A stretch of DNA of 64,000 nucleotides, from IMG/VR virus record IMGVR_UViG_3300035670_000024; one strand, 5' to 3'. The position numbers and the translations under genes were made by a program. The DNA comes from a virus. Below are positions 32,625-60,072 of the stretch, piece by piece; position 1 is the stretch's first letter, and the number at the start of each line of letters is the position of its first letter. The notes under the pieces are model-generated. The model ran no database searches, was not told where the DNA came from, and saw only the letters and a program-made list of their open reading frames with translations.

Positions 32625-33095
32625 TCAACTCCAATTGTTCTTATAAAATAATGGTTTGTCTGTGCAGATGCCATAACTTCTTTCTATATATTCTGGATTT
32701 GAAAGGTATAAATCAGTATTTTCTGGTAAAACAATAACTGATTTAGAAAAGGGAATTTCCCCCACCAAAACCCATCCAATTCCTTTACTAGTCAAAGTAT
32801 ATTTGTCTACATCATGCCAAAAATAATGAAAATTTATTGGAGCACTTGATAATTTTTCAAGTGCTTCTCTATTTTTACAATGAATCCAAAGTACATCTTT
32901 ATACTTTCTTAACCATTCCATAGTGATAAAATATTGGGGACGATCATGCCCAAGATAGCATTGATCATCCCCAATAACCCATAAATCAATTTCAACATCA
33001 AATCCTTCAGAGATTGCTTCTTCAATATACTCAGTACTATTTTCTCTGAGTGGATTTGGTTCAGTTAAATTTCCCCGATGTGCAATAATTTTCAT
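32625..33095 (-). CDS. Short GDPD-like (glycerophosphodiester phosphodiesterase fold) protein
   Basis: IAHRGN..EN, FDVEIDLW, LGHD, WIHCKN, GICTD. Confidence 0.8.
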   Translation of the reverse strand: MKIIAHRGNLTEPNPLRENSTEYIEEAISEGFDVEIDLWVIGDDQCYLGHDRPQYFITMEWLRKYKDVLWIHCKNREALEKLSSAPINFHYFWHDVDKYTLTSKGIGWVLVGEIPFSKSVIVLPENTDLYLSNPEYIERSYGICTDKPLFYKNNWS

Positions 33096-33103
33096 TTAAA
33101 TAA

Positions 33104-33871
33104 TCATCCAAATAAAACTCTTCTAAAATCTATGTTATTATTAATTCTAACAACAAAATTAAATCTTTTTAAAGGGACATTTGTAACCTTAAGATATTCA
33201 CTAAGCATGATTTCTGGTTGAAATGGGCAATCATGCAATTTTAGTAAATTATTATACAGGTTTGAATATATGTCCATTGAAAAAGAAGATCCTAATGCGA
33301 ATTGATCATTTATTCCTCCACACCAATCCTCACCATCTGGAATGTAAAGAGCATCTGTCATTTCACTGACATCTAATGTTTTACCCTCAAAATCACTATC
33401 AAATCTCATTCTTATTACACAATCAAAAAGCATATTGTTTTCAGTTTCATATTGTCTTTTTAATTCATTCGCTTTAAATATAGAATAATGCATACTTAAT
33501 GGCCCAATATCTTTTCTTGGGTATATTAATTCATGTGTATCTACATTTTTATTGTACCATTTCCTAGTTATTAAAGATTTTGGAGGTAATCTATTGTAGA
33601 TTAGTTCAAAATCACTCTTTTTTGTATCATAATTTTCTATCAATATTTTTTCATAATCAAATAAATCTATAATATTTGGAGATGTTTCTATGATTTTATC
33701 TAATTCTTTATGTTGGTATCCAAAAACAGTATTTAAGAATCCATCAAAATTTTTTATTTTCCAAGTATGAATAAAAATTTTGATATCATCATTTGGTATA
33801 ATATTTTCAATACTTTTAACTGCTATATGGGGATATCGCACACCACCAGAAATACATAATGCTATTTTCAT
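33104..33871 (-). CDS. Putative glycosyltransferase-like protein (paralogue of 37477-38190)
   Basis: IALCISG..R, IFIHTW, SMHYSI, VIRMRFD, GINDQFA, PE.ML. Confidence 0.6.
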   Translation of the reverse strand: MKIALCISGGVRYPHIAVKSIENIIPNDDIKIFIHTWKIKNFDGFLNTVFGYQHKELDKIIETSPNIIDLFDYEKILIENYDTKKSDFELIYNRLPPKSLITRKWYNKNVDTHELIYPRKDIGPLSMHYSIFKANELKRQYETENNMLFDCVIRMRFDSDFEGKTLDVSEMTDALYIPDGEDWCGGINDQFALGSSFSMDIYSNLYNNLLKLHDCPFQPEIMLSEYLKVTNVPLKRFNFVVRINNNIDFRRVLFG

Positions 33872-33941
33872 ATAATGCTTCTATAAAAAGGTTTTCTCAT
33901 AACATTTAGTTCAGTTAAATTTCTCCAGATGTATAAGAATT

Positions 33942-35147
33942 TTAATATTCATTTCTAGTTAATATTAATATCCAACTATTTGGATAAATTCCATTTCCCA
34001 TGATATGATGAGTATTAATTTTTTTTATTGAATCATAAAACTTATTATGCCCATATAGATTGATTTCTTCCATATAAGATTCAAAAGAATCCTCAGAAAG
34101 TAAACCTTCAATTATCAATATTCCACCGGGATTTAGATACTTATAAGCATTTCTAATAATTTTAATTCTAGACCAAAATGTATGATCAGAATCATCTATT
34201 AAGATATCAAATTTGGAATTGGATTTTTCAAATGCTTCACAAATTGATACTTCACTAGTTGCATCCATATAATCATATGAAGTATCTGGAAGATTATCTT
34301 CTTTTGCGCTTTGAAGTAAACTACTATCATTATCCCATCCATAAAGATGAGCATTAGAGAAGTATTCTCTCCAAATTTTCATTGATGAGTTTTTGTATAT
34401 TCCAATTTCTCCAAAATTAATCTGTTTGTATTTGAATGGAGAAAATAGAAGATTATAAAATGATGTGCAATAATTGGAATCTTTTTTAAATGAAAGTGTA
34501 GCGATGTATAGATTTACATTTTCCTGATAAAAACCTTGATGATGAGGTTGCTCGTATTCTTTTCTATACCTACTTGTTAACTTTAGTCCTGAAGATTCTA
34601 CGATTTTAATTATATTTTCAGGTGAAATAAATTCACCAGGATCTGGAGATAAGGTGACATCAGTGGAAATAAGTAATCTTCCGTTTGGTTTTAAGACTCT
34701 ATGAACTTCATCTGCAACATTTTTCCATCCCCAATTTTCAATACCATCTCCCCATGTAGGATTGAAACAGTGTACTGAGCAAGAATCAATTATAACATCT
34801 ACACTCTCCGGTTCCATTTGCTTTAGTTCATATAAAGCATCACCAAGAACCATTTTTGCTAATCCTTTTGGACACCAATGATCAACACTCATAAGATCTA
34901 TTCCAGTCACATCATTGCCCCAACTTGCAATGATGTGAGGAATTACTCCATTTGCAGATCCTAAGTCAATTACGGTTAAATTATTTTTTCCGATTGACTT
35001 GAATTCTTGTAATAATGACACCCATTTGACAATGGCTGCATCCTTGTCCCAAAATTCTCCCCGAAAACCTTTTTCAGGCCATTTTTCTTTTTTTAGTATA
35101 TCCTTACAGATAGAAACATCCTTAGATGTAATTAACTTATTGTACAT
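33942..35147 (-). CDS. Tandem two-domain SAM methyltransferase
   Basis: Domain 1 VIDLGSANG..VHRVLKPNGRLLIS; domain 2 GEIGI..S.KIWREYF..FDILIDD.DH..LNPGGILIIE. Confidence 0.8.
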   Translation of the reverse strand: MYNKLITSKDVSICKDILKKEKWPEKGFRGEFWDKDAAIVKWVSLLQEFKSIGKNNLTVIDLGSANGVIPHIIASWGNDVTGIDLMSVDHWCPKGLAKMVLGDALYELKQMEPESVDVIIDSCSVHCFNPTWGDGIENWGWKNVADEVHRVLKPNGRLLISTDVTLSPDPGEFISPENIIKIVESSGLKLTSRYRKEYEQPHHQGFYQENVNLYIATLSFKKDSNYCTSFYNLLFSPFKYKQINFGEIGIYKNSSMKIWREYFSNAHLYGWDNDSSLLQSAKEDNLPDTSYDYMDATSEVSICEAFEKSNSKFDILIDDSDHTFWSRIKIIRNAYKYLNPGGILIIEGLLSEDSFESYMEEINLYGHNKFYDSIKKINTHHIMGNGIYPNSWILILTRNEY

Positions 35148-35158
35148 TTTTTAATAGA

Positions 35159-36397
35159 TCAAAAATCAAGAACCCATTCAGGAAGAGAACCGCCGCCAGT
35201 TTCATATCCCCACTTATCTATGGCATCACGAAACTCTTTACCTGGAGTCTTATCAATTGCCTGACGCATTGCTAAAGCACCCGATAAAGTGCCTCCTGGA
35301 TGACCATGAACCGCTCCACCACAATTAGCAAGAAAGTCAGTGCCAAACTTTTCTGCTGTAGTATTTACAATACCAGGATGCATACCACAACTTAGTGCGG
35401 GAAGCACATTTCTCTTATGTAGTGTTGCCATTGTCTGACGAAGTTCATCTTCATCATCACTTAAGTATCCACCCCACATTCCTGCATGAATTGTATCTAC
35501 ACCGCAAAGTCCTGCAAGATCACAGAGAACATCCCAATCAATACCAAATGCATGTCTCTTATCGGTAAGAATCTTATCACCACTCTTTTGATAATGAACA
35601 AATAAAGGTAGATCCATTTTTCTTACAGAATTATAAACTCCTAGACCACTCCAGAAGTTAATATGAATACCATTACCACCATTTTCTGCAACAAACTTAG
35701 CACGATCAAGAATTGTATGATGATCTCCATTAATACAGAAGCAATAGATCACTCCCCTTCCACAATTATTGACAATGTTGGAAATCAATTCTACACGATC
35801 CTCAAGACGGCAAAATGAAGGATTGGCAAGAATCTCATCTTCTTTAATGAAATCAACTCCACCATCCAGAAGTTCTTTGACCATTTCTGATAGAGTTTGT
35901 GGAGAAATGCCTGTTTTTGGTTTTACGATTGCCCCAGAAAGTGGTTTGTCATAGCGATTAACAAACTTACGAATTCCATCAATACCATTCTTAGGCCCTA
36001 GGAATTGTGCTTCCACATCGGCAGGAAATTCAAGTTTACGAAGACGGCAAACTTTAAATACATCAATATCTAATTGACCTCCCATCAATTGACAAAGAAG
36101 ATGTGAGATACCATCACCTTCCCAATCAGTATTTACTTTAGGAAATCCAATTTTAACTTCCCCTTCAGTCAACTGAGAAAGTTCATTTTCATCAGCATAG
36201 ATGACACAAGATGAAAGTTCAAAAAGTTCATCATTTTCCCAGCGATTACGAACTTTTGGATTCCCTACACTTTGTCCAATTGCGAGATTCCAAGCCGCAT
36301 CTTTTAATGTGCCAATATTTGAATATGATTCAATATAATAAGTTGCAATTACACAACGATTTTTTTCATATTCAGTTAGTTCTCTAAAGAATTTCAT
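35159..36397 (-). CDS. RuBisCO-like protein (form IV large-subunit superfamily)
   Basis: RuBisCO signature GGVDFIKEDE, IVKPKTG, F.GP..GI.GIR, G.DTIHAG, ALSCG, GGAVHGHPGG..GA.AMRQA. Confidence 0.93.
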   Translation of the reverse strand: MKFFRELTEYEKNRCVIATYYIESYSNIGTLKDAAWNLAIGQSVGNPKVRNRWENDELFELSSCVIYADENELSQLTEGEVKIGFPKVNTDWEGDGISHLLCQLMGGQLDIDVFKVCRLRKLEFPADVEAQFLGPKNGIDGIRKFVNRYDKPLSGAIVKPKTGISPQTLSEMVKELLDGGVDFIKEDEILANPSFCRLEDRVELISNIVNNCGRGVIYCFCINGDHHTILDRAKFVAENGGNGIHINFWSGLGVYNSVRKMDLPLFVHYQKSGDKILTDKRHAFGIDWDVLCDLAGLCGVDTIHAGMWGGYLSDDEDELRQTMATLHKRNVLPALSCGMHPGIVNTTAEKFGTDFLANCGGAVHGHPGGTLSGALAMRQAIDKTPGKEFRDAIDKWGYETGGGSLPEWVLDF

Positions 36398-36720
36398 GAT
36401 TCAACCTCAAATTTATCAGATGGAATAGACGGAATTTTAACTACCACTAAGGTACAATCTTCAAGAAAAATTGGATCAGCAACTTCTCCTTTTTCAAATA
36501 CAAATACATCCCCACTATTTAACTCATTTCCCTGAATGATCATTTTACCGGAAATAAGAACATTATATTCTATACTTTCCTTATGATAGTGAGGAGACCA
36601 ATATTCATCCTTTTTATGTTGTAGAATACCAACCTCAAAATCTTTGGTTTTAAACAGAGATGGTTCAAAATCTCCAATGAACCATCCACGAACATAATCA
36701 GTAATTTTTGTTATATTCAT
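36394..36720 (-). CDS. Cupin-fold protein
   Basis: GWFIGDFEPS..FEVG..HYHKES.EYN; translationally coupled to the RLP. Confidence 0.75.
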   Translation of the reverse strand: MNITKITDYVRGWFIGDFEPSLFKTKDFEVGILQHKKDEYWSPHYHKESIEYNVLISGKMIIQGNELNSGDVFVFEKGEVADPIFLEDCTLVVVKIPSIPSDKFEVES

Positions 36721-37432
36721 ATTTTTTTAAATAATAATTTAAATCTTCTGGGACACCGACAGGATTATGTTGCCAAGTTGGGATTTGATGTATTCCAACT
36801 TTTCGGCCAAAATGTTTAATCATATAATTGTATGTTGGTCCAACATAGTATTCGCCATTAGGTGCTGTATCTTCAAACTGAATCATTTCTTGAGCACTTT
36901 CAACAAAGTAAAATCCTTTTCTCCAATAATGAATTCCGTTAAGAGATATGTTGCTAATGACCTCCTTCTCTTTCACCTCCAATACTAACCCATCTCTATC
37001 AATTTTGCAATAGCTGTTTTTGGGCGTGTCCGTTTCATAGGTGACTATGACTCCATCATACTTATAGTATCTTGCCGTTTGCAGAAATAATCCAGAATCC
37101 CACCACATTATTTGATCACAATTCGCAATAACCAATTCAGTATTATTATTAATTTCAGTTTCAAATAATAATGCACTACATGCTGGTCCTTTTGTAGTCT
37201 CATCAACTGTGATTATCTTACAATCTGGAACTATTTTTTTAAGCAATTCGTATATTTGAAAATAAAATGAATCTTGCCGAATTACAAAATGATATTTACC
37301 ATCAAGATTCATAGATTCAATTGCACATTGAATCATTGGTTTACCTTCAATTTCAATCAGTGGTTTAGGTAGATGGTATTTGTCTCTTGGAAATCTAGTT
37401 CCTTCTCCAGCCATCGGTATGACAATGTTCAT
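36698..37432 (-). CDS. Sugar-phosphate nucleotidyltransferase (GT-A/NTP transferase)
   Basis: IVIPMAGEGTRF..PKPLI..GKPMI, T.GPACS, ANCDQ, EK..IS, NGEYYV.P.YN, G.PEDL. Confidence 0.9.
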   Translation of the reverse strand: MNIVIPMAGEGTRFPRDKYHLPKPLIEIEGKPMIQCAIESMNLDGKYHFVIRQDSFYFQIYELLKKIVPDCKIITVDETTKGPACSALLFETEINNNTELVIANCDQIMWWDSGLFLQTARYYKYDGVIVTYETDTPKNSYCKIDRDGLVLEVKEKEVISNISLNGIHYWRKGFYFVESAQEMIQFEDTAPNGEYYVGPTYNYMIKHFGRKVGIHQIPTWQHNPVGVPEDLNYYLKKYEYNKNY

Positions 37433-37476: not shown

Positions 37477-38190
37477 TCATCTATTATTAATAACAACTCT
37501 AAAATCAAATCTATTTACTGCTATGTTGTACATTTCAAAGTATTTGCGAAGCATAGTTTCTGGATGATATTGAACATCTCTAATTTTATCAATATGATTA
37601 TATAAATTAGAATACAAATTCATTGCATCTGAAGATCCTACAGCAAACTGATCATTAATGCCACCACACCAATCTTCTCCTCTTGGAATATTGATTCCAT
37701 TTGGAATGTTGTTTAGATGTAATTCATTTCCTCCAAAGTTACTATCAAATCTCATTCTAATCACTTTATCAAATATCATATTATTTTCTTTTTCATAATC
37801 ACATTTTAATTGATTGCTTTTATAAATTGAATAGTGCATACTAATTGGTCCAACATCATGCCTTGGAACTATACATGCCCCTTGCTGAAATGGGAGAAGA
37901 TTTATAGAATTATGAATTGCTTCAAATTCAGAATGCTTAGATTCATCATAATCTTCTATTAAAAGTTTTTCGTAATTGTAATGTTCTAAAAAATTAAATT
38001 GAGTTTCAAAAATGTTATCTGGTTCTTTACTTTGTAATCCAAAAATAGTTTTTAAAAAACTTTCTGTATCTACAATTTTCCAAGTATGAATAAAGATTTT
38101 GATACAATCATTAGGAACTATTTTTTTAATACTTTCTAGACCTATATGAGGATATCTTATATTTCCTGAAATGCAAATTGCTACTTTCAT
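37477..38190 (-). CDS. Putative glycosyltransferase-like protein (paralogue of 33104-33871)
   Basis: VAICISGNIRYPH, IFIHTW, SMHYSI, VIRMRFD, GEDWCGGINDQFA. Confidence 0.6.
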   Translation of the reverse strand: MKVAICISGNIRYPHIGLESIKKIVPNDCIKIFIHTWKIVDTESFLKTIFGLQSKEPDNIFETQFNFLEHYNYEKLLIEDYDESKHSEFEAIHNSINLLPFQQGACIVPRHDVGPISMHYSIYKSNQLKCDYEKENNMIFDKVIRMRFDSNFGGNELHLNNIPNGINIPRGEDWCGGINDQFAVGSSDAMNLYSNLYNHIDKIRDVQYHPETMLRKYFEMYNIAVNRFDFRVVINNR

Positions 38191-39179
38191 TTAAAAATAA
38201 AATCTCTTATAAAATTTTTAGATGCTTTAACCAAATATGCGGCATTATCTTGATATCCAAAGGTTATTAGATAATCATTTTTATATTCTGCCATTCCTAC
38301 AGCAAATTCAATTTCTGCATTTATAAAAGAAAATTGTTTAGACACTTTTACGATATTCCAATCTTTGTCCCATACAACAAAACGATGACGATAAACTCCA
38401 TCTTTTCTACCTGCAGGACTTTTTGTAAGATATGTTTCATGAGTTAAGCAAAATCTATAATCATCTCCAAGAGGAATAATCTGAGAACCACCTCTTAAAT
38501 CAATAGTTCCAAAATCTTTCCAATCTTTTTTTATAATACTGGTAGTAGTGTTACTTTCAATGTCATATTTTACGATTTCAGTTCCATTTGTCCATTTTAC
38601 ATAATGATATGGCATGTCAAGAATAGGCATCCAATTCTTATTGCAATATTCTTCGTCTGGAGGTGGAGCAGGAATGCGATGTTGATTAATTTCTTTTACA
38701 CCATTCTCCGTAATTTCTAGTTCGGAAAGTTCCATTCTTCCCGTTCCAATTGTATCTAAATCTCTTCTCACTCCAGTTATGTAAAGTTTGTCGTTCCAAC
38801 GGACAATACGACAGTCTTCTAATCCAACAAAATCCCACAACTCTTTATCTGGGAACTTTGAAGTATCAATATAATGATATTTTTTAATTCTCATATCATC
38901 ATCCATTTCGCACATAATATTCCATGTGCGGAGATGCATATCATTTTCTGGATGAATATAAACTAAAGGTCCCCAAGGGTGTTCAAATTTTTTCTTTTCT
39001 GAATGATATAGTGTATAATTGATATTTCTGAGATTTACTAAAATCTTATCTCCATCAATGTAAACCGAAGGATTTGTAAGTGCCGGCCCTTTTAGTTCAT
39101 TTGATGGAATAATTAAAGGATAAATGCTTCCTCCATTTTGGAGAGCAATTTTGACGAAGTTCATTTCATCTGCTGTCAT
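38187..39179 (-). CDS. Five-bladed beta-propeller glycosidase/phosphorylase-like protein (GH130/GH43-type fold)
   Basis: NPSV, GLEDCRIV, NKNWMP, LRGGS, IEFAVGM, ITFG.QD. Confidence 0.7.
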   Translation of the reverse strand: MTADEMNFVKIALQNGGSIYPLIIPSNELKGPALTNPSVYIDGDKILVNLRNINYTLYHSEKKKFEHPWGPLVYIHPENDMHLRTWNIMCEMDDDMRIKKYHYIDTSKFPDKELWDFVGLEDCRIVRWNDKLYITGVRRDLDTIGTGRMELSELEITENGVKEINQHRIPAPPPDEEYCNKNWMPILDMPYHYVKWTNGTEIVKYDIESNTTTSIIKKDWKDFGTIDLRGGSQIIPLGDDYRFCLTHETYLTKSPAGRKDGVYRHRFVVWDKDWNIVKVSKQFSFINAEIEFAVGMAEYKNDYLITFGYQDNAAYLVKASKNFIRDFIFK

Positions 39180-44244: not shown

Positions 44245-46263
44245 TTAAACTCCGAATACGATGCTGTATGAAATGGATTGTTCCGCTGTTACAAATGAAG
44301 TTGTTGGAGAACTGGTAGATTTAATTGCAACTCCAAAGAATACTTGTCCTGCTTTAGGTGCCTCAACAAAATTAATTTTGATTGGGTCAGTTGTTCTATT
44401 TGTACCACCACTAATATAAAAACCTGCAGTTTGTGATGGGTCTGGTTGTTGAACTATTCCTCCTACAGAAATAAGTAGTCGTGCTGCACTATCTATCTCA
44501 CTATTTATGAAATTACCTGAATTATCGGAAATGATAAATTGAGTTGTTGAACCATTAAAGAGTGAAGAAATATCATTCAAAATTACGGATTGATCAGGAA
44601 CAGATGCTGTTGACCCAACAGCACCTTGTAGACCTTGTAGACCCTGCGATCCTTGAAGACCTTGAACACTGCCAGCAAGACCTTGAACACCTTGATTTGC
44701 TAACCCTTGAAGACCTTGGAGACCTTGAGATCCTGATATACCTTGATTGCTAAGACCTTGAACACCTTGAGAACCTTGTGATCCTGAAGTTCCCTGAGAA
44801 CCTGAAGTACCTTGAGAACCAACACCTTGAGTTCCTTGTAATCCTTGAGATCCTTGAGATCCTTGAGATCCTGAAGTACCTTGAGAACCAACACCTTGAG
44901 TTCCTTGTAGTCCTTGAGAACCTTGAGAACCAGAAATACCTTGATTACTTAAACCCTGAGTACCCTGTAATCCTTGAGAACCTTGAGATCCTGATGTTCC
45001 TTGAGAACCAGAAATACCTTGATTACTTAAACCTTGAGTTCCTTGTAGTCCCTGTGAACCCTGAGAACCTGAAGTACCTTGTGATCCAGAAGTTCCTTGA
45101 TTACTTAAACCTTGCGTTCCTTGTCTACCCTGAAGTCCTTGAGCACCTTGAGATCCAGATGTTCCTTGAGATCCAGAAGTTCCCTGAGAACCTGAAGTAC
45201 CTTGAGAACCAACACCTTGAGTTCCTTGTAGTCCTTGAGAACCTTGAGAACCAGAAATACCTTGATTACTTAAACCTTGAGTTCCTTGCAGTCCTTGAGA
45301 TCCTGATGTACCTTGAGAACCAGAAATGCCTTGATTACTTAGACCTTGTGTACCTTGTAGTCCCTGAGAACCTTGCGATCCAGAAGTACCTTGGGAACCA
45401 GATGTTCCTTGAGATCCTGCTATACCTTGATTACTTAAACCTTGAGTTCCTTGTCTACCCTGAAGACCTTGAGAACCTTGAGATCCTGATGTACCTTGAG
45501 AACCAGAAATACCTTGATTACTTAAACCCTGAGTTCCTTGTAGTCCCTGTGAACCCTGAGATCCTGATACACCTTGATTACTTAATCCTTGATTACCTTG
45601 AACACCTTGTCTACCCTGAAGACCTTGAGAACCTTGTGATCCTGATGTTCCCTGAGATCCAGAAATACCTTGATTACTTAAACCTTGAATACCCTGTAAT
45701 CCTTGAAAACCTTGAGATCCAGAAATACCTTGATTACTTAAACCTTGAGTACCTTGATTTCCTTGTAATCCCTGTGATCCCTGAGATCCTGATGTACCTT
45801 GGGAACCAGAAATACCTTGATTACTTAAACCTTGAGTTCCTTGTCTTCCCTGTAATCCTTGAAACCCTTGAGAACCTAAAGTACCTTGATTACCTTGTAC
45901 TCCTTGACTTCCTGAAGAACCTTGAAGTCCTTGATCTCCACGAATTTGTCCTACATTATCCCAGTCAGTTCCCGTATAAACCCACAAATCACCAGTATTT
46001 TCCTCAATAACACCATCACCTGCAAAGGGAGGATACCAAGAAAATTGAGTATCGTCGTTAGTTAATGTAGTATGGGGTTCCGATGTAGTAACACTAGTAA
46101 CAACACCAACAATAGTTACAGAAGTTCCATCAGTACCAGATTTTCCCTGAACACCTTGATTTGAAAAACCTTGGATTCCCTGTTCACCGATTATTCCTTG
46201 AACACCTTGAGCGCCTTGATCGCCTTTAAATGTTCCTCCAATAATAGTACTTAGAAATGCCAC
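44245..46263 (-). CDS. Collagen-like (Gly-X-Gln) fibre protein 4
   Basis: About 440 aa of GXQ/GXS triplets; C-terminal DIS..FNG.TT.F..GIVQQP..INF.EAP domain; GTG start; late motif at 46286-46292. Confidence 0.85.
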   Translation of the reverse strand: MAFLSTIIGGTFKGDQGAQGVQGIIGEQGIQGFSNQGVQGKSGTDGTSVTIVGVVTSVTTSEPHTTLTNDDTQFSWYPPFAGDGVIEENTGDLWVYTGTDWDNVGQIRGDQGLQGSSGSQGVQGNQGTLGSQGFQGLQGRQGTQGLSNQGISGSQGTSGSQGSQGLQGNQGTQGLSNQGISGSQGFQGLQGIQGLSNQGISGSQGTSGSQGSQGLQGRQGVQGNQGLSNQGVSGSQGSQGLQGTQGLSNQGISGSQGTSGSQGSQGLQGRQGTQGLSNQGIAGSQGTSGSQGTSGSQGSQGLQGTQGLSNQGISGSQGTSGSQGLQGTQGLSNQGISGSQGSQGLQGTQGVGSQGTSGSQGTSGSQGTSGSQGAQGLQGRQGTQGLSNQGTSGSQGTSGSQGSQGLQGTQGLSNQGISGSQGTSGSQGSQGLQGTQGLSNQGISGSQGSQGLQGTQGVGSQGTSGSQGSQGSQGLQGTQGVGSQGTSGSQGTSGSQGSQGVQGLSNQGISGSQGLQGLQGLANQGVQGLAGSVQGLQGSQGLQGLQGAVGSTASVPDQSVILNDISSLFNGSTTQFIISDNSGNFINSEIDSAARLLISVGGIVQQPDPSQTAGFYISGGTNRTTDPIKINFVEAPKAGQVFFGVAIKSTSSPTTSFVTAEQSISYSIVFGV

Positions 46264-46334
46264 GGTTTATCTTTTTATTTTTTATTATTTATTTAATAAT
46301 TATAATAATGAATTATAATAATGTTGTTGTTCAG

Positions 46335-48491
46335 TCATCCTTTCAATTCATTCAGTTGATTTTCAAGATTATTTATCTGCTTTTGTTGTTCTTTAATTGC
46401 TTCAATTAGAAGTGAAGTTAAGTTTCCGTAAGCAACTGACTTAATACCTGTGCTATCTTCCATAACAATTTCAGGAAGTACTTTTTCAACTTCTTGTGCA
46501 ATTACACCAACATATCTTCTTTCTTTATCTTCTTGGTCATTTCTATTAAATGTAACACCACGAATTTGAGAAACTTTATCTAATGCATTTGTAATGGTTT
46601 CAATATTTTCTTTGAGTTTGATATCAGAGTTTGCAGTGACTGTTCCAGATGCAGTTATATTTCCATTAGAACCTAAAGTAATAACTGCTGATCCACTTCT
46701 ATTTCCACCATAAATTTGTGTTCCACTTGAAAATCTCATTGCACAATAACCTGTATTCAGGTCTACAATATCACCATCATCTGCAAGAATAATTCCTCCA
46801 CCAGTTGCATTACCAGTTGATACTGTTAAATTTCCCGATAAACTTATATTAGAGGCATTGAAGTTTCCACCAATAGTAAGATCACTTGTACTTGGATTAA
46901 AACTAAATGCAGTTGTCGCCGTTCTTACTGATGGAGTTTGGTTAGTACCTGCAGCAGCGACAAATACTGGGAAAAACGATGCATTTGTGGTTACTGCTGT
47001 TGCATTTATTGCAGTAGAAGGGCCTGCAGTACCTACAGTTCCTTGAGCACCTGAAGTTCCTTGAGAACCAGATGTTCCTTGAGAACCTGATGTACCTTGA
47101 TTACTTAAACCTTGAGTACCTTGTCTACCCTGAAGACCTTGAGCACCTTGAGAACCTGCTGCACCTTGAGTACCTGATGTACCTTGAGCACCTGATGTAC
47201 CTTGAGCACCTGATGTACCTTGGAAACCTGCTGTACCTTGAGCACCTGAAGTTCCTTGAGAACCTGCTACACCTTGATTACTTAAACCCTGAGTACCTTG
47301 TCTACCCTGAAGTCCTTGAGCACCTTGAGATCCTGCTATACCTTGATTACTTAAACCCTGAGTACCTTGTCTACCCTGAAGTCCTTGAGCACCTTGAGAT
47401 CCTGCTATACCTTGATTGCTTAAACCTTGAACCCCTTGATTGCCTTGTAATCCTTGAGAACCTTGGGATCCTGATGTACCTTGAGAACCAGAAATACCTT
47501 GATTACTTAAACCTTGAGTTCCTTGTCTTCCCTGAAGTCCCTGAGCACCTTGAGAACCAGAAATACCTTGATTACTTAAACCTTGAGCACCTTGAGATCC
47601 TTGAGTACCTGATGCGCCTTGAGTACCTGATGTACCTTGAGAACCTGCTACACCTTGATTACTTAAACCTTGAGTACCTTGTCTACCCTGAAGACCTTGA
47701 GCACCTTGAGAACCTGCTGCACCTTGAGTACCTGATGTACCTTGAGCACCTGATGTACCTTGAGCACCTGATGTACCTTGGAAACCTGCTACACCTTGAT
47801 TACTTAAACCTTGAGCACCTTGATTTCCCTGCAATCCTTGAGATCCTTGAGAACCTGCTATACCTTGATTACTTAAACCTTGAGTTCCTTGTCTTCCCTG
47901 GAGACCTTGAGCGCCTTGGGATCCAGAAATACCTTGATTGCTTAAACCTTGAACCCCTTGATTGCCTTGTAATCCTTGAGAACCTTGGGATCCTGATGTA
48001 CCTTGATTACTTAAACCTTGAACCCCTTGATTGCCTTGTAATCCTTGATTTCCCTGAGAACCTATTGTTCCCTGATTTCCCTGTAATCCTTGAGATCCTT
48101 GAGAACCTGCTATACCTTGATTACTTAAACCTTGAGTTCCTTGTCTACCCTGAAGACCTTGATTACCTTGAACACCTTGATTGCTTAAACCTTGAACACC
48201 TTGATTACCCTGAAGACCTTGAACACCCTGATTTGATAATCCCTGTAGACCTTGATTTCCTTGTAATCCCTGAGAACCTTGAGATCCAGAAATGCCTTGA
48301 GATCCTTGATTACTTAAACCTTGTGTTCCTTGAGTACCTTGAGTACCTTGAAGACCTTGAGAACCAGAAGTGCCTTGAACACCTTCAGAAGGCATTAAAT
48401 CCCATGCTTCTCCATTAAACTTCCAGGTTCTACCCCCAAGAGAATATGTGGTTACATTTGCAATAGGGTTAATTGGAAAATCTAAAGGCAT
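46335..48491 (-). CDS. Collagen-like fibre protein 3 with C-terminal peptidase S74 intramolecular chaperone
   Basis: GXQ triplets; SDIKLKENI..ALDKV..GV.F..GVIAQEVEKVLPE..SVAYG..LIEAIKEQ. Confidence 0.9.
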   Translation of the reverse strand: MPLDFPINPIANVTTYSLGGRTWKFNGEAWDLMPSEGVQGTSGSQGLQGTQGTQGTQGLSNQGSQGISGSQGSQGLQGNQGLQGLSNQGVQGLQGNQGVQGLSNQGVQGNQGLQGRQGTQGLSNQGIAGSQGSQGLQGNQGTIGSQGNQGLQGNQGVQGLSNQGTSGSQGSQGLQGNQGVQGLSNQGISGSQGAQGLQGRQGTQGLSNQGIAGSQGSQGLQGNQGAQGLSNQGVAGFQGTSGAQGTSGAQGTSGTQGAAGSQGAQGLQGRQGTQGLSNQGVAGSQGTSGTQGASGTQGSQGAQGLSNQGISGSQGAQGLQGRQGTQGLSNQGISGSQGTSGSQGSQGLQGNQGVQGLSNQGIAGSQGAQGLQGRQGTQGLSNQGIAGSQGAQGLQGRQGTQGLSNQGVAGSQGTSGAQGTAGFQGTSGAQGTSGAQGTSGTQGAAGSQGAQGLQGRQGTQGLSNQGTSGSQGTSGSQGTSGAQGTVGTAGPSTAINATAVTTNASFFPVFVAAAGTNQTPSVRTATTAFSFNPSTSDLTIGGNFNASNISLSGNLTVSTGNATGGGIILADDGDIVDLNTGYCAMRFSSGTQIYGGNRSGSAVITLGSNGNITASGTVTANSDIKLKENIETITNALDKVSQIRGVTFNRNDQEDKERRYVGVIAQEVEKVLPEIVMEDSTGIKSVAYGNLTSLLIEAIKEQQKQINNLENQLNELKG

Positions 48492-48543
48492 TTATTTATA
48501 TTGAATTACTAAATTCTTATTAAAAATATTTATTATCATAATC

Positions 48544-49380
48544 TTATACATCTCCAGTATTTGTGCTTGGAAAAGACCTTCCTGGACCCCAAATAATTCT
48601 AAGTGCTCCAACATCACCATTACCACCGTTACCATTATCCATACCACCTCCACCTCCACCATAATCTCCACCATCTCTTACTACACCAGAAGTTCCTCCA
48701 GAACCACCCCCACCTGGGTTAGCAGCACCACCAGTACCTCCAGTTCCACTAGAACCTTCGCCAAGTATTCCGGTTCCACCGCCACCGCCACCACCAGCGG
48801 CAGAAGAACCGCCACCACCGCCACCACCGCCATCACCATTTCCACCAGCACCATTCGCAGTTCCTCCTACTCCACCATTTCCAGAATATCCACCAGCACC
48901 GCCACCACCACCATTTTGAGATGCAGTTTCTTCACCACCATTGCCACCATCACCACCACCAATATCTCCACCAGTTGCCGTTCCTGTTCCACCAATACCT
49001 GCTGTGGTTGTAGTTCCTTCACCTCCCCCATCGGCTTGAAGTAAAATAGTTCCTCCTCTAGAAATTGATGTATTTCCTCCAGGTTGTCCAGAAGTATTGT
49101 TAGAAGTTGCTCCAGTTCCACCAGCACCCACTGTGACTGTAAGTTCCTCAAAGGGAGTTACTGGAATATTATTATAATATCTCAATCCTCCTCCACCACC
49201 ACCAGCAACTTCTGTGTTGTTTTGTCCACGAGCGCCGCCACCTCCACCACCTATAGCGACAACTGAAATTTGAGTAATTCCAGCCGGAACTGTAAATGTA
49301 AAAGTTCCTGGAGTTGTATATGCTTCTTGACCTGGAGCAGATGGATTGATAAATCCAAGTAAAATAGATGCTATTGTCAT
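48544..49380 (-). CDS. Glycine-rich domain fibre-tip/adhesin-like protein
   Basis: YTTPGTFTFTVPAG..VVAIGGGGGG; poly-Gly loops; GALRIIWG. Confidence 0.75.
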   Translation of the reverse strand: MTIASILLGFINPSAPGQEAYTTPGTFTFTVPAGITQISVVAIGGGGGGARGQNNTEVAGGGGGGLRYYNNIPVTPFEELTVTVGAGGTGATSNNTSGQPGGNTSISRGGTILLQADGGGEGTTTTAGIGGTGTATGGDIGGGDGGNGGEETASQNGGGGGAGGYSGNGGVGGTANGAGGNGDGGGGGGGGSSAAGGGGGGGTGILGEGSSGTGGTGGAANPGGGGSGGTSGVVRDGGDYGGGGGGMDNGNGGNGDVGALRIIWGPGRSFPSTNTGDV

Positions 49381-49381
49381 A

Positions 49382-52300
49382 TTAAGTTAATCCTGCTCCC
49401 GAAATGATGAACACATCAGCATTATTTACATCAGCAACACAAAGAACGGTACAAACACCATAAGCACCAAGAGTTCTATTTCCTGTTTGAGTTGTACCAG
49501 CATATCTTAAAGTCACATTAGAACCTTGAGTAATTGTTTGTGCAACTGCAGAGTCATTATAAATCACCACATTTTCTCCTACTTGGAATACATTGACGGG
49601 AACTGTTACACCACCAGTAGTAATATCAATATGTTTTCCATTATCTGATGCTTGAAGAACATATGATGTTGTTTGAACATTTTGCGGAATTGTTGCAGGA
49701 CCAAATGTTCCTTGGTTTCCTTGAAGTCCTTGTGTACTTTGAATACCTTGAAGACCTTGAACACCCTGAACACCCTGATCTCCTTGTAATCCTTGAACCC
49801 CTTGATTGCCTTGTAATCCTTGATTTCCCTGAGAACCTATTGTTCCTTGATTTCCCTGTAGTCCTTGAGAACCTTGAGAACCAGAAATACCTTGATTACT
49901 TAAACCTTGAGTTCCTTGTCTACCCTGAAGACCTTGAGATCCTTGATTACTTAAACCTTGAACCCCTTGATTTCCTTGTAATCCTTGAGAACCTTGAGAT
50001 CCTATTGTTCCTTGATTTCCCTGTAGTCCTTGGGAACCTTGAGAACCAGAAATACCTTGATTACTTAAACCTTGAGTTCCTTGTCTTCCCTGCAATCCTT
50101 GAGAACCTTGATTACTTAAACCTTGAACACCTTGATTGCCCTGAAGACCTGTTGGGCCTGTTGGTTCTGGTCCAAACTCAACCCATTGTTGACTATTTCC
50201 ATCATTATAATAACGATATGTAACCCCGGTATTTTCATTAATCCAAATATCCCCAACAACTGAAGATATTCCTGCAGATGATGGTTGGATATAAGTTCTC
50301 GGTGCCCATCTAGTTGCTCCAGATGCTGTAGATACTATTATTGAACCTGCAATTCCTACATTATTGAAACTATCATAAACAGAACCTCTAATTCTAATAT
50401 TTCCATTTACATCCAAACTTTGTGTTGGAATAGAAGTTCCGATTCCTACAGAACCTAATCCACTTACTACAAGAGAAGGTGAAGCAAAAAGTGCTGTAGT
50501 CAGTCCAGAATTTACTGTTGAGAGACCTATGTAATAAGGTTTAGTTTCTACTGAAGAAATATTATAAAAAGTAGAAATACCTGATCCACCTTCACTAGCA
50601 TTTCCTGCGGGGCCTTGAACACCTTGAACACCTTGATTTGATAATCCTTGAGTACCTTGTCTACCTTGAAGACCTTGAGAACCTTGATTACTTAAACCTT
50701 GAACCCCTTGATTGCCTTGAAGACCTTGAGCACCTGAAGTTCCTTGAGAACCTGAAGTTCCTTGAGAACCTGAAGTTCCTTGAGAACCTGAAGTTCCTTG
50801 AGAACCTGAAGTTCCTTGATTACTTAAACCTTGAGTTCCTTGTCTGCCTTGGAGACCTTGAGCACCTTGAGAACCTGAAGTTCCTTGAGAACCTGAAGTT
50901 CCTTGAGAACCTGAAGTTCCTTGAGAACCTGAAGTTCCTTGATTACTTAAACCTTGAGCACCTTGATTTCCCTGCAATCCCTGTGAACCTTGAGCACCTG
51001 AAGTTCCTTGAGATCCAGATGTTCCTTGAGCACCTGAAGTTCCTTGAGATCCAGATGTTCCTTGAGCGCCTGAAGTTCCCTGAGAACCAAATGTTCCTTG
51101 AGAACCTGCTATACCTTGATTACTTAAACCTTGAGTTCCTTGTCTTCCCTGGAGACCTTGAGCACCTTGAGATCCAGAAATACCTTGATTGCTTAAACCT
51201 TGATTACCTTGTAATCCCTGCGAACCTTGAGAACCAGAGATACCTTGATTACTTAATCCTTGAACTCCTTGATTTCCCTGAAGACCCTGAGCACCTTGAT
51301 TTCCTTGTAACCCTTGAGAACCTTGAGATCCTAATGTACCTTGAGCACCTGAAGTTCCTTGAGATCCTATTGTTCCCTGCAAACCTTGAGTTCCTTGATT
51401 ACCTTGTAATCCTTGAAGACCTTGAGTTCCTTGATTACCTTGTAATCCTTGAAGACCTTGAGATCCTGAAGTACCTTGATTACCCTGAACACCTTGATTA
51501 CTTAAACCTTGAGTTCCTTGTCTGCCTTGGAGACCTTGGGAACCTTGATTACTTAAACCCTGAACACCCTGCAATCCTTGAGAACCTTGAGATCCAGAAG
51601 TACCTTGTGAACCTGATATACCTTGAGAACCAGTATCTCCTTTATCTCCTGTTCTAGCGAAAGTGATGATAATATCTTCGTTAGAACTAAATGAAGTTGC
51701 ACTACCGGAAACATATGAACAATCAACTTCAAAATATCCAGTTTGTTCTATAATTCCGGAAATAGTGAAAAGTGCAAAATCAGAAGAATCAAACTTATTT
51801 GAAATTCTAAAATGACCTTTAATAGTTGATGTAGAATCATCAATTGTTCTTAGGAATGATTGGATATCAGTTGTTCCATCGTTTTGATCATCAATATAAA
51901 GTTTATTTGCAAGAGTTATATTAGAATTATTAAACTTAAGATTTCCAGTTCCTGGATCAATATTTGTAGTATCAGTATTAAAAGTATAATCAAAAGTAGC
52001 ACCACCAAAGTTTCCATCTTTACCAGAAAGTCCTTGCAAACCTTGAGAACCAGAAGTACCCTGTGTTCCTTGATTACCTTGGACACCTTGATTGCTTAAA
52101 CCTTGAACACCTTGATTTCCTTGTAGTCCCTGTGATCCCTGAGATCCTGAAGTTCCTTGAGTTCCTTGTAGTCCCTGTGATCCTTGTGTTCCTTGATTAC
52201 CTTGAACACCTTGATTGCTTAGACCTTGGACACCTTGAGAACCTTGAGATCCTGATGTACCCTGTAATCCTTGAGTTCCCTGATTACCTTGTAAACCTTG

Positions 52301-53770
52301 CAATCCTTGAATTCCTTGATTGCCTTGTAATCCTTGAAGACCTTGAGAACCTTGAGCGCCTGAAGTTCCCTGAGAACCAAATGTTCCTTGAGAACCTGCT
52401 ACACCTTGATTACTTAAACCTTGAGTACCTTGATTTCCCTGAAGACCTTGAGCACCTTGGGAACCTGAAGTGCCTTGAGAACCTGAAGTGCCTTGAAATC
52501 CAGATGAACCTTGAGTACCTTGATTTCCCTGAGCACCTTGATTACTTAAACCTTGAACACCTTGATTTCCTTGAAATCCTGATGAACCTTGAGCGCCAGA
52601 AACACCTTGATTACTTAAACCCTGAATACCTTGACCCCCTTGAGCACCTTCTGGGCCTACAGAAGCATAAACTTCCCAAGTAGTTCCATCATAAATTAAA
52701 TCAACTTTTACTCCAGGAATATCAAGAATTAAATCCTCATCAAATCCTTCAATTGTTGAACCGTTTCTTGCAACTGTTAAGTTATTTGTTTCCCAGTTAT
52801 TACCATCTGCAATAGTTATAAAATTTCCATTTAAAGGAGTTGCTGGAAGTGTAATAGTAAAAGAACCACCAGAAGTATCGGCAATAATTTGTTCGCCATT
52901 TATTGCTGTATAATTTTCAGTTTTTCTAGTCCATAATCCACCAAAAGCACCTGATAAACCTTGAACACCTTGAATAGATTCTCCTTGCAATCCCTGCAAA
53001 CCTTGAAGTCCTTGAGAACCTGTTCCTTGTGATCCTTGAGTTCCTTGAGTTCCTTGAGCACCTTGGCCTCCTTGTGATTCTAATAATTCCCAAGATGCAC
53101 CATTCCAACCATAAAAACTACCAGACTCATACTTAATTTTATCTTCCGTTAGGGTTCCGGTAATATAACCAGAACCATTATTTTCATCAACACGAAATAC
53201 AATTCCTAAAAATTGAATAAAAGTTCCACTAGCAGTGGGTGGAACATTGGTATATCCACCAGCAATACCAAGATATACTTTATCTCCTACATTAAACTGA
53301 GAAGTATCTACACCCTTAATCTCACCCAAGACCAACATTCGGCCTTCTGCTTCGTCTGCTATGGTTTCATCCATAACACCGATAGCAATCTTATTTGTAT
53401 CATCTGCACGAGCAGGTGCTACAGTTATAGTATTTCCAGAAATTCCAACCTGATAAACAGGAGTTCCTTTAGGGATAGTTGAACCTGAAACATTCTTTGC
53501 AGTTTCATAGATGGTTTTTGCATTAACTCTATCAGTCCAATCTACTCCAGTACCAGTAGATATAAGAATTTCATCAGGACTTCCTGGGTTATTATTACTA
53601 TCATATAAAATACCACGAACTCTTATATCTCCAGCAATATCTAAATCTGCAGTTGCATTTGTAGTTCCTATGCCAACTTTACCAGTAACCTCAAGTACTG
53701 TTTTATTTTCGGTATAAGAACTAATACCGACTTTAAGATTTTTTTGACGATTACTGAGATACTTTGCCAT
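49382..53770 (-). CDS. Collagen-like fibre protein 2 (globular domains separated by GXQ segments)
   Basis: 1462 aa; three long GXQ tracts, VGIGT..P..LD..G fibre repeats, C-terminal beta domain. Confidence 0.85.
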   Translation of the reverse strand: MAKYLSNRQKNLKVGISSYTENKTVLEVTGKVGIGTTNATADLDIAGDIRVRGILYDSNNNPGSPDEILISTGTGVDWTDRVNAKTIYETAKNVSGSTIPKGTPVYQVGISGNTITVAPARADDTNKIAIGVMDETIADEAEGRMLVLGEIKGVDTSQFNVGDKVYLGIAGGYTNVPPTASGTFIQFLGIVFRVDENNGSGYITGTLTEDKIKYESGSFYGWNGASWELLESQGGQGAQGTQGTQGSQGTGSQGLQGLQGLQGESIQGVQGLSGAFGGLWTRKTENYTAINGEQIIADTSGGSFTITLPATPLNGNFITIADGNNWETNNLTVARNGSTIEGFDEDLILDIPGVKVDLIYDGTTWEVYASVGPEGAQGGQGIQGLSNQGVSGAQGSSGFQGNQGVQGLSNQGAQGNQGTQGSSGFQGTSGSQGTSGSQGAQGLQGNQGTQGLSNQGVAGSQGTFGSQGTSGAQGSQGLQGLQGNQGIQGLQGLQGNQGTQGLQGTSGSQGSQGVQGLSNQGVQGNQGTQGSQGLQGTQGTSGSQGSQGLQGNQGVQGLSNQGVQGNQGTQGTSGSQGLQGLSGKDGNFGGATFDYTFNTDTTNIDPGTGNLKFNNSNITLANKLYIDDQNDGTTDIQSFLRTIDDSTSTIKGHFRISNKFDSSDFALFTISGIIEQTGYFEVDCSYVSGSATSFSSNEDIIITFARTGDKGDTGSQGISGSQGTSGSQGSQGLQGVQGLSNQGSQGLQGRQGTQGLSNQGVQGNQGTSGSQGLQGLQGNQGTQGLQGLQGNQGTQGLQGTIGSQGTSGAQGTLGSQGSQGLQGNQGAQGLQGNQGVQGLSNQGISGSQGSQGLQGNQGLSNQGISGSQGAQGLQGRQGTQGLSNQGIAGSQGTFGSQGTSGAQGTSGSQGTSGAQGTSGSQGTSGAQGSQGLQGNQGAQGLSNQGTSGSQGTSGSQGTSGSQGTSGSQGAQGLQGRQGTQGLSNQGTSGSQGTSGSQGTSGSQGTSGSQGTSGAQGLQGNQGVQGLSNQGSQGLQGRQGTQGLSNQGVQGVQGPAGNASEGGSGISTFYNISSVETKPYYIGLSTVNSGLTTALFASPSLVVSGLGSVGIGTSIPTQSLDVNGNIRIRGSVYDSFNNVGIAGSIIVSTASGATRWAPRTYIQPSSAGISSVVGDIWINENTGVTYRYYNDGNSQQWVEFGPEPTGPTGLQGNQGVQGLSNQGSQGLQGRQGTQGLSNQGISGSQGSQGLQGNQGTIGSQGSQGLQGNQGVQGLSNQGSQGLQGRQGTQGLSNQGISGSQGSQGLQGNQGTIGSQGNQGLQGNQGVQGLQGDQGVQGVQGLQGIQSTQGLQGNQGTFGPATIPQNVQTTSYVLQASDNGKHIDITTGGVTVPVNVFQVGENVVIYNDSAVAQTITQGSNVTLRYAGTTQTGNRTLGAYGVCTVLCVADVNNADVFIISGAGLT

Positions 53771-53779
53771 TTGAAGATA

Positions 53780-54109
53780 TTAATTGAGGGTTTCTAAGAT
53801 GCTTGCGACAAATTTTAAATTGCTGGCATTACTACCTGATAATACTAATTTATCTCCACTTTCAAGAACCAATTTTCCAGAAAGAAGATTCGCAGTATCA
53901 TTTGCTGAAATTGGAAATTCTTTTAACATTTCAGTATCAGTTGATGATCTGCGATGAGTTAGAGAAACATCTTCATTTGTTGATCCGATGTTTGCAACTT
54001 GCGCTAAAAGAACAACACCTGTATATCCAACAGGAGCAGTATAAATTGAAGTTGCACTTGTGCCTACAACTGAAGTAACTGTTTTAAAAACATTAAGTGC
54101 TAATGCCAT
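53780..54109 (-). CDS. Small virion beta-sandwich protein (paralogue of 63189-63548)
   Basis: ALN.F.T..IYTAP.G..VVL.AQV.N..I..ND..GKLVLE.GD..S.LET. Confidence 0.75.
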   Translation of the reverse strand: MALALNVFKTVTSVVGTSATSIYTAPVGYTGVVLLAQVANIGSTNEDVSLTHRRSSTDTEMLKEFPISANDTANLLSGKLVLESGDKLVLSGSNASNLKFVASILETLN

Positions 54110-54113
54110 TGTA

Positions 54114-57002: not shown

Positions 57003-57026
57003 ATTATCTTATTGGTATTTACCTTC

Positions 57027-57051
57027 AAAAAACTCTTATGTAAGAGTTTTT
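57027..57051. terminator. A/T-flanked hairpin (possible bidirectional terminator)
   Basis: aaaaactctta-tg-taagagttttt perfect inverted repeat. Confidence 0.5.
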
Positions 57052-57056
57052 ATTAT

Positions 57057-57299
57057 TTATGAAAAATCTTCTTCTATCTTTGATACCTTTTTAGACTTCT
57101 TCATTTTTTCAATTTCTTCATTTAAATCATTAATTTTTCTATTTAATGCTTCAATTAGTTGATTTGAATTCATTAATCTTGCTTCAAGTGCAATTGTTTG
57201 TGCGGTTAAATCACTTACCTTTTGTTGGTATACTGAGAGAAGATTTTTAATTTCTTGTTCGTTCATTTCAATTAAAATTTCTATCCTATTTAGAGACAT
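57057..57299 (-). CDS. Small coiled-coil protein
   Basis: Heptad-rich; start may be MNEQEIK. Confidence 0.7.
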   Translation of the reverse strand: MSLNRIEILIEMNEQEIKNLLSVYQQKVSDLTAQTIALEARLMNSNQLIEALNRKINDLNEEIEKMKKSKKVSKIEEDFS

Positions 57300-57325
57300 A
57301 AAAAAGAGGAGGATTTCTCCTCCTC
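57300..57325 (-). terminator. Intrinsic terminator after 57350-59281
   Basis: GAGGAGGA-gaaa-TCCTCCTC followed by a T-tract on the minus strand. Confidence 0.85.
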
Positions 57326-57349
57326 GTATAAAGACTTAAATATTAATTA

Positions 57350-59281: not shown

Positions 59282-59379
59282 ATTTTCCTTTGATTGATAA
59301 TTTGACTAGCTAGTACAAAAATTCACATCAAATTATTAATATGAGCAAATTAAAAAACATCATTACTAATATTTATTTC

Positions 59380-60044: not shown

Positions 60045-60072
60045 AAGAACCGGGATTTTTAATTATTTAGTA

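Follow-up and report, generated by a model that had tools for sequence, protein, structure and literature searches.

A RuBisCO-like protein in a nucleotidyltransferase-centred phage cassette of probable glycan function

What would a homologue of the RuBisCO large subunit do among the glycosyltransferase genes of a phage? This question is raised by a stretch of viral DNA of 64,000 nucleotides (IMG/VR virus record IMGVR_UViG_3300035670_000024; the window hereafter), in which the gene of a 412-residue RuBisCO-like protein (RLP) overlaps that of a small cupin by 4 nt (the ATGA shared by the cupin stop and the RLP start), and the cupin gene overlaps by 23 nt that of a nucleotidyltransferase (NTPT). 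The genes of this region are all on the minus strand and are packed from 41377 down to 28881, with overlaps or gaps of at most 70 nt (the island; Table 1). A preliminary description of this DNA had located the three genes and their overlaps exactly, and had proposed that they remodel a host sugar phosphate for a surface glycan. The analysis reported here suggests that the cassette is probably a nucleotide-sugar-type pathway built around one NTPT, where the RLP, together with the cupin, would supply an unusual phosphosugar for a glycan.

On sequence grounds the 412-residue protein is unambiguously a homologue of the RuBisCO large subunit, as first described: PF00016 matches it with an E value of 1.8e-42 (146 bits, cut-off 30.1), and the form III RuBisCO 2cwx is found in the Protein Data Bank (PDB) at 3e-39. 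For a comparison of the active sites, the RLP and 33 relatives from its clade (n = 34) were aligned with a form I enzyme, two high-scoring RuBisCOs from DPANN archaea, MtnW and OiaX. K175, K177, K201, D203, E204, S379, G381, G403 and G404 are kept in all 34 members, the VKPK motif (with K175) and the FIKEDE motif (with the carbamylation and Mg2+ set K201, D203 and E204) being invariant, and H327 is retained in 30 of them, the window RLP included. However, K334 is replaced by Y, H294 by Q, E60 by G and T65 by N in every member, R295 is replaced by K in 30 of the 34, H298 is mostly D (the window RLP has both of these changes) and the position of N123 is occupied by G or Q. Judged from the alignment, what survives is the enolisation core with its metal and carbamate, as well as the P1 phosphate cradle formed by the backbone, whereas the residues for carboxylation and hydration are gone. 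Large-subunit homology without the carboxylase residue set is form IV in the broad sense, and this describes the RLP. From the residues that define forms I-III it has the Mg2+/carbamate set but differs at the positions required for carboxylation and RuBP binding, namely loop 6, H294/R295/H298 and, in the N-domain, E60/T65/N123.

The RLP also falls outside the characterized families. None of the NCBIfam equivalog models for form III, MtnW or OiaX reaches its cut-off with the RLP; the scores fall short by a factor of two to five, being 167.6 against 409 (NF007095) and 125.6 against 513.6 (TIGR03332) for MtnW, and 151 against 700 for OiaX. In a quick IQ-TREE run, the 34 RLP sequences form one clade with a support of 99 in the Shimodaira-Hasegawa-like approximate likelihood ratio test (SH-aLRT), apart from MtnW and the Alicyclobacillus RLPs, from OiaX-type RLPs and from true RuBisCOs. 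A homologue from Beckwithbacteria (L095, 50% identity) lies inside this clade.

The gene is not a rarity of this phage, since the RLP was found on 228 IMG/VR contigs and among thousands of metagenome proteins. A comparison of 84 viral or metagenome RLP loci shows the NTPT in 80, the cupin in 69, a small glycerophosphodiesterase-like protein (mini-GDPD) also in 69, a DUF7796 protein in 42 and a CmcI-like methyltransferase in 31. As a negative control, the 23 next-best RLP loci (from Alicyclobacillus and other Bacillota, with identities of 32% or less) have none of these partners. Moreover, one-genome-per-species prokaryote contigs yielded 47 cellular loci of the clade, carried by SAR11, Patescibacteria (candidate phyla radiation, CPR), DPANN archaea, Planctomycetota, Verrucomicrobiota and Elusimicrobiota, and further by Azospirillum oleiclasticum, Turneriella, Legionella species and Francisellaceae. 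In all of these loci that have flanking sequence to examine, the RLP adjoins an NTPT of the family found in the viral loci. For example, in a complete Pelagibacter genome the RLP-NTPT genes lie amid heptose and lipopolysaccharide (LPS) core genes with a KdsB-like gene, in another SAR11 genome the cassette lies amid GT17, GT61 and epimerase genes, and in Legionella nautarum the RLP-NTPT pair is beside LicD and a Wzy-like gene. These cellular contexts are surface-glycan loci, and together with the viral counts and the fusions described below they bear out the earlier proposal that places the RLP within a module for glycans or nucleotide sugars. The preliminary description had named a lack of conserved linkage to nucleotidyltransferase and cupin genes, or a place in the methionine-salvage clade, as grounds for giving that proposal up; the linkage is conserved, and the tree places the RLP outside that clade.

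Two independent proteins of 813 and 817 residues (P0122 and P0123) unite RLP, NTPT and cupin in single polypeptides. The 813-residue protein is encoded on a contig (L177:6389-8830) where the next gene is one for DUF7796; because of a poxvirus-type VLTF3 gene, this contig is considered giant-virus-like, that is, similar to the nucleocytoplasmic large DNA viruses. Genes of the Pox_VLTF3, ankyrin and AAA families are found on the giant-virus-like contigs with fused modules. In another giant-virus-like contig (L179:6584-10175), the RLP has an unannotated C-terminal extension of 330 residues and adjoins an NTPT-cupin fusion and a 544-residue DUF7796 protein. Also, one phage subgroup (L033:461-16182, with L029-L037 and L078) carries an extra APH/fructosamine-type kinase, a sugar-phosphate cyclase similar to 3-dehydroquinate synthase, a short-chain dehydrogenase/reductase (SDR), two radical-SAM enzymes and DUF6071/GDSL-like proteins. 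This expansion hints at a cyclitol or a heavily modified C7 unit, and the core unit is evidently elaborated differently among phage subgroups.

The profile of the NTPT family matches best PDB entry 4evw (1e-33), a structural-genomics entry for a Vibrio cholerae 'nucleoside-diphosphate-sugar pyrophosphorylase' and the only solved close relative, followed by GDP-mannose pyrophosphorylases (GMPP), RmlA, GlmU and HddC; sugar-1-phosphate enzymes rank above the cytidylyltransferases of the IspD and inositol-phosphate types. Across 26 sequences, G9, G11, R13, D106, E155 and K156 are invariant or nearly so, which we take to be the GxGTR loop, the catalytic D and the sugar-phosphate-binding EK of RmlA. 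The Pelagibacter orthologue is annotated as PF00483 in precomputed data. A LicC- or IspD-type cytidylyltransferase was also considered for the NTPT and is unsupported, as these types score weakly or not at all in the same ranking. Regarding the cupin, H35, H44, H46 and E51 are invariant across 21 homologues, giving an HxH..E metal motif, and its profile matches quercetinase and cupins of the phosphomannose isomerase (PMI) type. The family profiles bear out the identities first given to both genes. A complex prediction for RLP and cupin gave a score of 0.00, with no verdict for or against contact.

The gene first described as GDPD-like encodes about 60% of a normal GDPD, less than the full (beta/alpha)8 barrel of about 240 residues, and Pfam PF03009 gives no match for the window protein. 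Nonetheless, the alignment contains the HRG, EN, ExD and GHD motifs and an H-x-K strand, with H6, R7, E18, N19, E35, D37 and H50 invariant or nearly so, the profile matches the GDPD 7e0v at 1.2e-4 over the catalytic motifs, and the predicted model (predicted local distance difference test, pLDDT, of 96.7) retrieves GDPDs in Foldseek with an E value of 3e-4 and a template modelling (TM) score of 0.57 by query and 0.40 by target. The protein is a minimal GDPD variant, whose family comprises 1338 clusters at 50% identity with E values of 1e-30 or better. The best 150 representatives include 20 with additional sequence and a length above 230 residues; the fusion partner is DUF7796 in eight, and in others it is a WavE-like, GT61, SAM-dependent methyltransferase (O-methyltransferase) or sulfotransferase domain. 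These partners are acceptor-level, late-acting tailoring enzymes and not precursor enzymes. The order DUF7796, mini-GDPD, Methyltransf_24 in the window is the unfused counterpart of the GDPD-DUF7796 fusions.

Two DPANN loci differ in this component. In Micrarchaeota (L105:11977-13494) and Woesearchaeota (L098:12722-14205), a full-length GDPD (PF03009, 5e-17) replaces the mini form and is beside or fused with a second NTPT, the fusion being that of the Micrarchaeota locus. Both genomes additionally encode a high-scoring true RuBisCO.

For the DUF7796 family, which includes the gene first described as GT-like, the predicted model (pLDDT 90.9) would have a GT-A glycosyltransferase fold; Foldseek finds GT6 enzymes with an E value of 1e-6 but TM scores of only 0.43-0.46, and R147, D149 and D180 are invariant in the alignment. 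The sequence profile has no match in the PDB; only the fold search gave one.

Two of the mini-GDPD fusions lie in modules with the same NTPT family (profile E of about 1e-90) and without RLP. In these modules a HAD domain precedes the NTPT or is part of the same protein, and models of the beta-phosphoglucomutase family match this domain best; an MtnC-type identity for this partner was rejected in view of those matches. A scan for HAD-NTPT fusions gave 284 viral loci, and the best 80 of them contain the mini-GDPD in 64 cases (30 directly adjacent), DUF7796 in 36, the cupin in 13 and the RLP in only 5. Conversely, none of the 81 NTPTs of the RLP-centred set has the HAD domain, both sets being skewed towards near relatives of each query. 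NTPT, mini-GDPD and putative GT-A transferase form a base module for activation, transfer and processing, with the NTPT as its hub, and the pairing of the GDPD-like protein with the NTPT in the preliminary description corresponds to a real functional pair. The feeder position is filled either by a mutase-like HAD domain or by the RLP, usually with the cupin, and the RLP looks like an alternative phosphosugar feeder. The HAD-NTPT arrangement is similar to the classical supply of a sugar-1-phosphate to its activating enzyme in ManB/ManC, GlmM/GlmU and Pgm/GalU. However, in the cassette studied here a RuBisCO-fold enzyme stands in the feeder position and the mini-GDPD accompanies the NTPT.

Both kinds of module can be seen in one SAR11 LPS locus (L081:2758-4128, Pelagibacter sp. 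Uisw_094), where a HAD-NTPT fusion of the beta-phosphoglucomutase-like type lies 5 kb away from a mini-GDPD-NTPT-RLP group, and both NTPTs are equally similar (42%) to that of the window. A different arrangement (L210:7992-12591, also L211-L216) has the order HAD-NTPT, cupin, second NTPT, mini-GDPD, sulfotransferase and GT2; the second NTPT, of 361 residues, is fused to a PNKP-type HAD phosphatase and occupies the usual slot of the RLP.

From the gene anatomy, the active-site pattern, the clade-specific linkage, the fusions and the RLP-free variant, we infer the chemical steps, their order and their target as follows. The RLP would most likely enolise and isomerise a 1-phospho-2-ketose or a sugar bisphosphate through carbamate/Mg2+-assisted proton abstraction next to the 1-phosphate, which is the chemistry of MtnW and of the RLP from Rhodospirillum rubrum, and the small metal cupin probably contributes an isomerase or epimerase step. 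The product of both would be an unusual phosphosugar, coupled to a nucleoside triphosphate by the NTPT. Then, the DUF7796 GT-A transferases and the GT2/GT25/WavE enzyme would install the unit on a glycan of the host envelope or the virion, the SAM-dependent methyltransferases would O-methylate the installed unit, and the mini-GDPD would most likely act on a phosphodiester, either splitting or transferring it, on the side of the nucleoside diphosphate (NDP) donor or of the modified acceptor. The reading as an activated sugar is the simplest because the NTPT profile ranks sugar-1-phosphate enzymes first and DUF7796 is predicted to have a Leloir-type GT-A fold.

Three details of the preliminary description fare less well. 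A Calvin-cycle ribulose phosphate as the source is unlikely as a general answer, because SAR11, Legionella, DPANN archaea and giant-virus-like contigs also carry the cassette; a branched sugar is unsupported; and so is the trimming by the GDPD before activation. The mini-GDPD is mostly fused to late-acting enzymes.

Several points weigh against the proposed pathway. The RLP, the cupin, the mini-GDPD and the HAD domain each occur without the others, as combinatorial modules, and therefore the linkage proves a shared pathway neighbourhood and not an order of steps. The five loci that carry both a HAD-NTPT and an RLP mean that the latter is not a simple replacement of the HAD domain, the two feeders being alternatives in most loci and not strictly exclusive. 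Enolisable keto groups are absent from the common hexose phosphates, which leaves the starting metabolite unexplained. Also, the window copies of two key proteins are just below the Pfam cut-offs (26.3 against 27 in NTP_transf_3 for the NTPT; weak Cupin_7 and Cupin_2 matches for the cupin). Finally, among the isolate phages of INPHARED a tblastn search retrieved no RLP, and the DNA of the island had no match either, which leaves no cultured phage as a model.

A wider proposal can be made, although the balance leans somewhat against it as a whole: the RuBisCO-fold enzyme would be the committed step of an undescribed, globally distributed route to a new nucleotide-activated sugar, with which phages of marine and fresh waters, giant viruses, SAR11, Legionella, CPR and DPANN would decorate their surfaces. 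In this proposal the mini-GDPD, as the partner of the GT-A transferases, would represent a new kind of enzyme that forms or 'uncovers' a phosphodiester. The RLP could then convert a ketose-1-phosphate (or bisphosphate) to an aldose-1-phosphate, replacing a phosphomutase.

Among the alternatives, the best placed, although unlikely, is that the RLP and the cupin act after activation. Here, the NTPT would first make an NDP-sugar from an ordinary sugar-1-phosphate, and the RLP would then work as a tailoring isomerase or epimerase that enolises a keto-sugar linked to NDP, comparable to the RmlC and FdtA cupins. The order RLP-NTPT-cupin in the fusions is consistent with this, and so is the presence of the same NTPT in RLP-free modules, which would follow if tailoring by the RLP were optional. 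Cupins are classic NDP-ketosugar isomerases; moreover, a K at position 295 and H327 are kept, so that the site could accommodate a further anionic group, for instance a diphosphate. However, only 29 of the 84 loci have an SDR dehydratase or oxidase to generate the keto group, and the characterized RLPs (MtnW, the R. rubrum RLP and OiaX) all use free 1-phospho-ketoses.

Rather less likely again, the product would be a nucleotide-activated ketose or polyol phosphate instead of a glycosyl donor, attached through a phosphodiester in a teichoic-acid-like or LicD-like manner, with the mini-GDPD processing or 'uncovering' the diester. The LicD phosphotransferase gene adjoining the RLP-NTPT pair in L. 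nautarum points in this direction, as do the GDPD-type phosphodiesterases found throughout the clade (including the full-length DPANN forms and the NTPT fusion in Micrarchaeota) and the fusion of the mini-GDPD to acceptor-level enzymes; the CDP-6-fructose of the Campylobacter HS:5 pathway is a precedent for NTPTs acting on ketose phosphates. Nevertheless, LicD turned up in a single genus, sugar-1-phosphate enzymes are the closest to the NTPT profile, with the LicC and IspD types weak or absent, and the predicted Leloir GT-A fold of DUF7796 also speaks against this reading.

It is improbable that the RLP is a salvage enzyme for by-products of S-adenosylmethionine (SAM), such as methylthio- or 5-deoxy-ribulose-1-phosphate, serving the SAM methyltransferases and radical-SAM enzymes instead of a glycan precursor. 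Compounds of this kind are the substrates of MtnW and of the R. rubrum RLP, and methyltransferase genes, in one subgroup also radical-SAM genes, are among the neighbours. Also, RLP, cupin and phosphoesterase resemble the trio of MtnW, MtnX and MtnD: in the methionine salvage of Bacillus, MtnW is an RLP that only enolises a 1-phospho-ketose, with the phosphoesterase MtnX and the cupin dioxygenase MtnD, and the HAD enzyme MtnC, which replaces the RLP in other organisms, parallels the alternation of HAD and RLP observed here. The reference mtnW on a Priestia plasmid is likewise followed by mtnX. However, in addition to the low equivalog scores and the separate clade, K177 is kept here and lost in MtnW, and position 294 is Q here and H in MtnW. 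The invariant partner is a nucleotidyltransferase, which salvage would not need, and the setting is that of glycan loci. No mtnA, mtnB, mtnK or mtnX partner is seen, Pfam and NCBIfam scans of the window island detected none of these nor mtnD, and the Legionella and SAR11 loci have no methyltransferases beside the RLP-NTPT pair. The R. rubrum RLP itself is a 5-methylthio-D-ribulose-1-phosphate 1,3-isomerase, which shifts the carbonyl along a 1-phospho-ketose and feeds isoprenoids. This precedent has the type of reaction proposed for the window RLP and serves a biosynthetic pathway, but the system is not known to be linked to a nucleotidyltransferase.

A working RuBisCO, that is, an auxiliary carbon-fixation gene, can be dismissed despite the family resemblance and the best PDB matches to form III only, as it is refuted by the replacement of K334, H294, R295, H298, E60 and T65 in the clade, while heterotrophs carry the RLP and the island has no small subunit, PRK or carboxysome gene.

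The RLPs of apiose and four-carbon-acid catabolism, OiaX and its relatives, are comparable in being form IV and in acting on phosphorylated keto-acid substrates. However, the OiaX-type reference loci always have an adjacent four-carbon acid sugar kinase, which the window cassette lacks, and OiaX has lost K177 and kept K334, the reverse of the RLP clade described here.

Phage RLPs have already been published. Divergent RLPs of phages of the Myoviridae type were reported to group with Beckwithbacteria and to lack the carboxylase residues, their 'possible functionality unclear' (Jaffe, Castelle, Dupont & Banfield, bioRxiv 10.1101/386292, PMC6389311). The window RLP is matched by this description: like that 'IV-like' group it is phage-borne and outside classical form IV, and its clade includes the Beckwithbacteria homologue. 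The cassette of NTPT, cupin, mini-GDPD and GT-A transferases, the fusions and the HAD-containing variant without RLP are not described in that paper, and a literature search found no paper linking an RLP to a nucleotidyltransferase and cupin glycan module, and nothing on the function of RLPs in connection with Legionella, Pelagibacter, cyanophages or IV-GOS. What is new is the picture of an NTPT hub with a HAD alternative, the spectrum of mini-GDPD fusions and the triple fusions.

To our knowledge, every characterized RLP works in salvage or catabolism. If the RLP does help to make a glycan precursor, the most studied enzyme superfamily would gain a new functional branch. The cassette is also common, with the RLP on 228 IMG/VR contigs, HAD-NTPT on 284 and more than 1300 clusters of the mini-GDPD, and it is located in the variable surface-glycan islands of SAR11, the most abundant bacterium of the ocean, as well as in phages and giant viruses of the same waters. 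Therefore, it may bear on phage-host recognition and on an unidentified sugar in marine organic matter. The cultured carriers, the Legionella type strains and A. oleiclasticum, make the question directly testable.

Table 1. Genes of the island and its border, with their positions in the window and the basis of each assignment.
Feature	Position	Strand	Basis or remark
Three-domain glycosyltransferase GT2 + GT25 + WavE-like, 1031 aa	28881-31976	-	Domain matches
Methyltransf_24 / CmcI-like O-methyltransferase, 209 aa	31992-32621	-	Family present in 31 of 84 loci
Mini-GDPD, glycerophosphodiesterase-like, 156 aa	32625-33095	-	Catalytic motifs, model
DUF7796 protein 2, paralogue 55% identical to protein 1	33104-33871	-	Directly upstream of mini-GDPD
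Two-domain SAM-dependent methyltransferase, 401 aa	33942-35147	-	Methyltransf_11/_25 (residues 59-160), Methyltransf_31/_24 (residues 259-350)
RuBisCO-like protein (RLP), form IV-like, 412 aa	35159-36397	-	PF00016, PDB, NCBIfam, residue table, tree
Small metal-type cupin, 108 aa	36394-36720	-	Weak Pfam, invariant motif, profile matches
Nucleotidyltransferase (NTPT), sugar-1-phosphate type, 244 aa	36698-37432	-	GxGTR motif, PDB profile
DUF7796 protein 1, putative GT-A-fold glycosyltransferase	37477-38190	-	Weak PF25072, Atlas clusters, model
330-aa protein, weak GH130-like signal (lead only)	38187-39179	-	Family in 14 related loci
Two unannotated genes, 244 aa and 469 aa	39229-41377	-	No Pfam/NCBIfam match; close the island against the structural gene
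Virion structural gene	41356-44238		Matches phrog_5838; borders the island

Around the cassette, the island ends in the triple transferase, the flanking glycosyltransferase block reported at first is real, and the 'double methyltransferase' does contain two SAM-dependent methyltransferase domains. As a lead only, the sequence of the 330-residue protein could correspond to a glycoside phosphorylase or to a transferase with a beta-propeller fold, and a sugar-1-phosphate could be its product or its substrate. Neither methionine-salvage nor carbon-fixation genes were found in the island, the rest of the window not having been surveyed systematically. Scans for sigma-70 promoters and terminators performed no better than on shuffled sequences, and the window has a single copy of the T4 late-promoter motif TATAAATA, which lies outside the island and is fewer than expected by chance.

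Judging from the other genes of the window, this marine phage is a T4-like myovirus, with many collagen-like tail-fibre genes, a helicase and an RNA ligase, and its virion structural protein is 44% identical to the counterpart of Synechococcus phage S-CAM1. A homologue of the T4 RnlA-type RNA ligase and tail-fibre attachment catalyst (13995-15176; phrog_562, 5e-74) is an ordinary T4-like core gene. Finally, five very large collagen-like tail-fibre paralogues of 672 to 1462 residues occupy one third of the window (44245-63186), each with long antisense open reading frames (e.g., 44778-46010, plus strand) that the repetitive Gly-X-Y coding most likely produces as artefacts.

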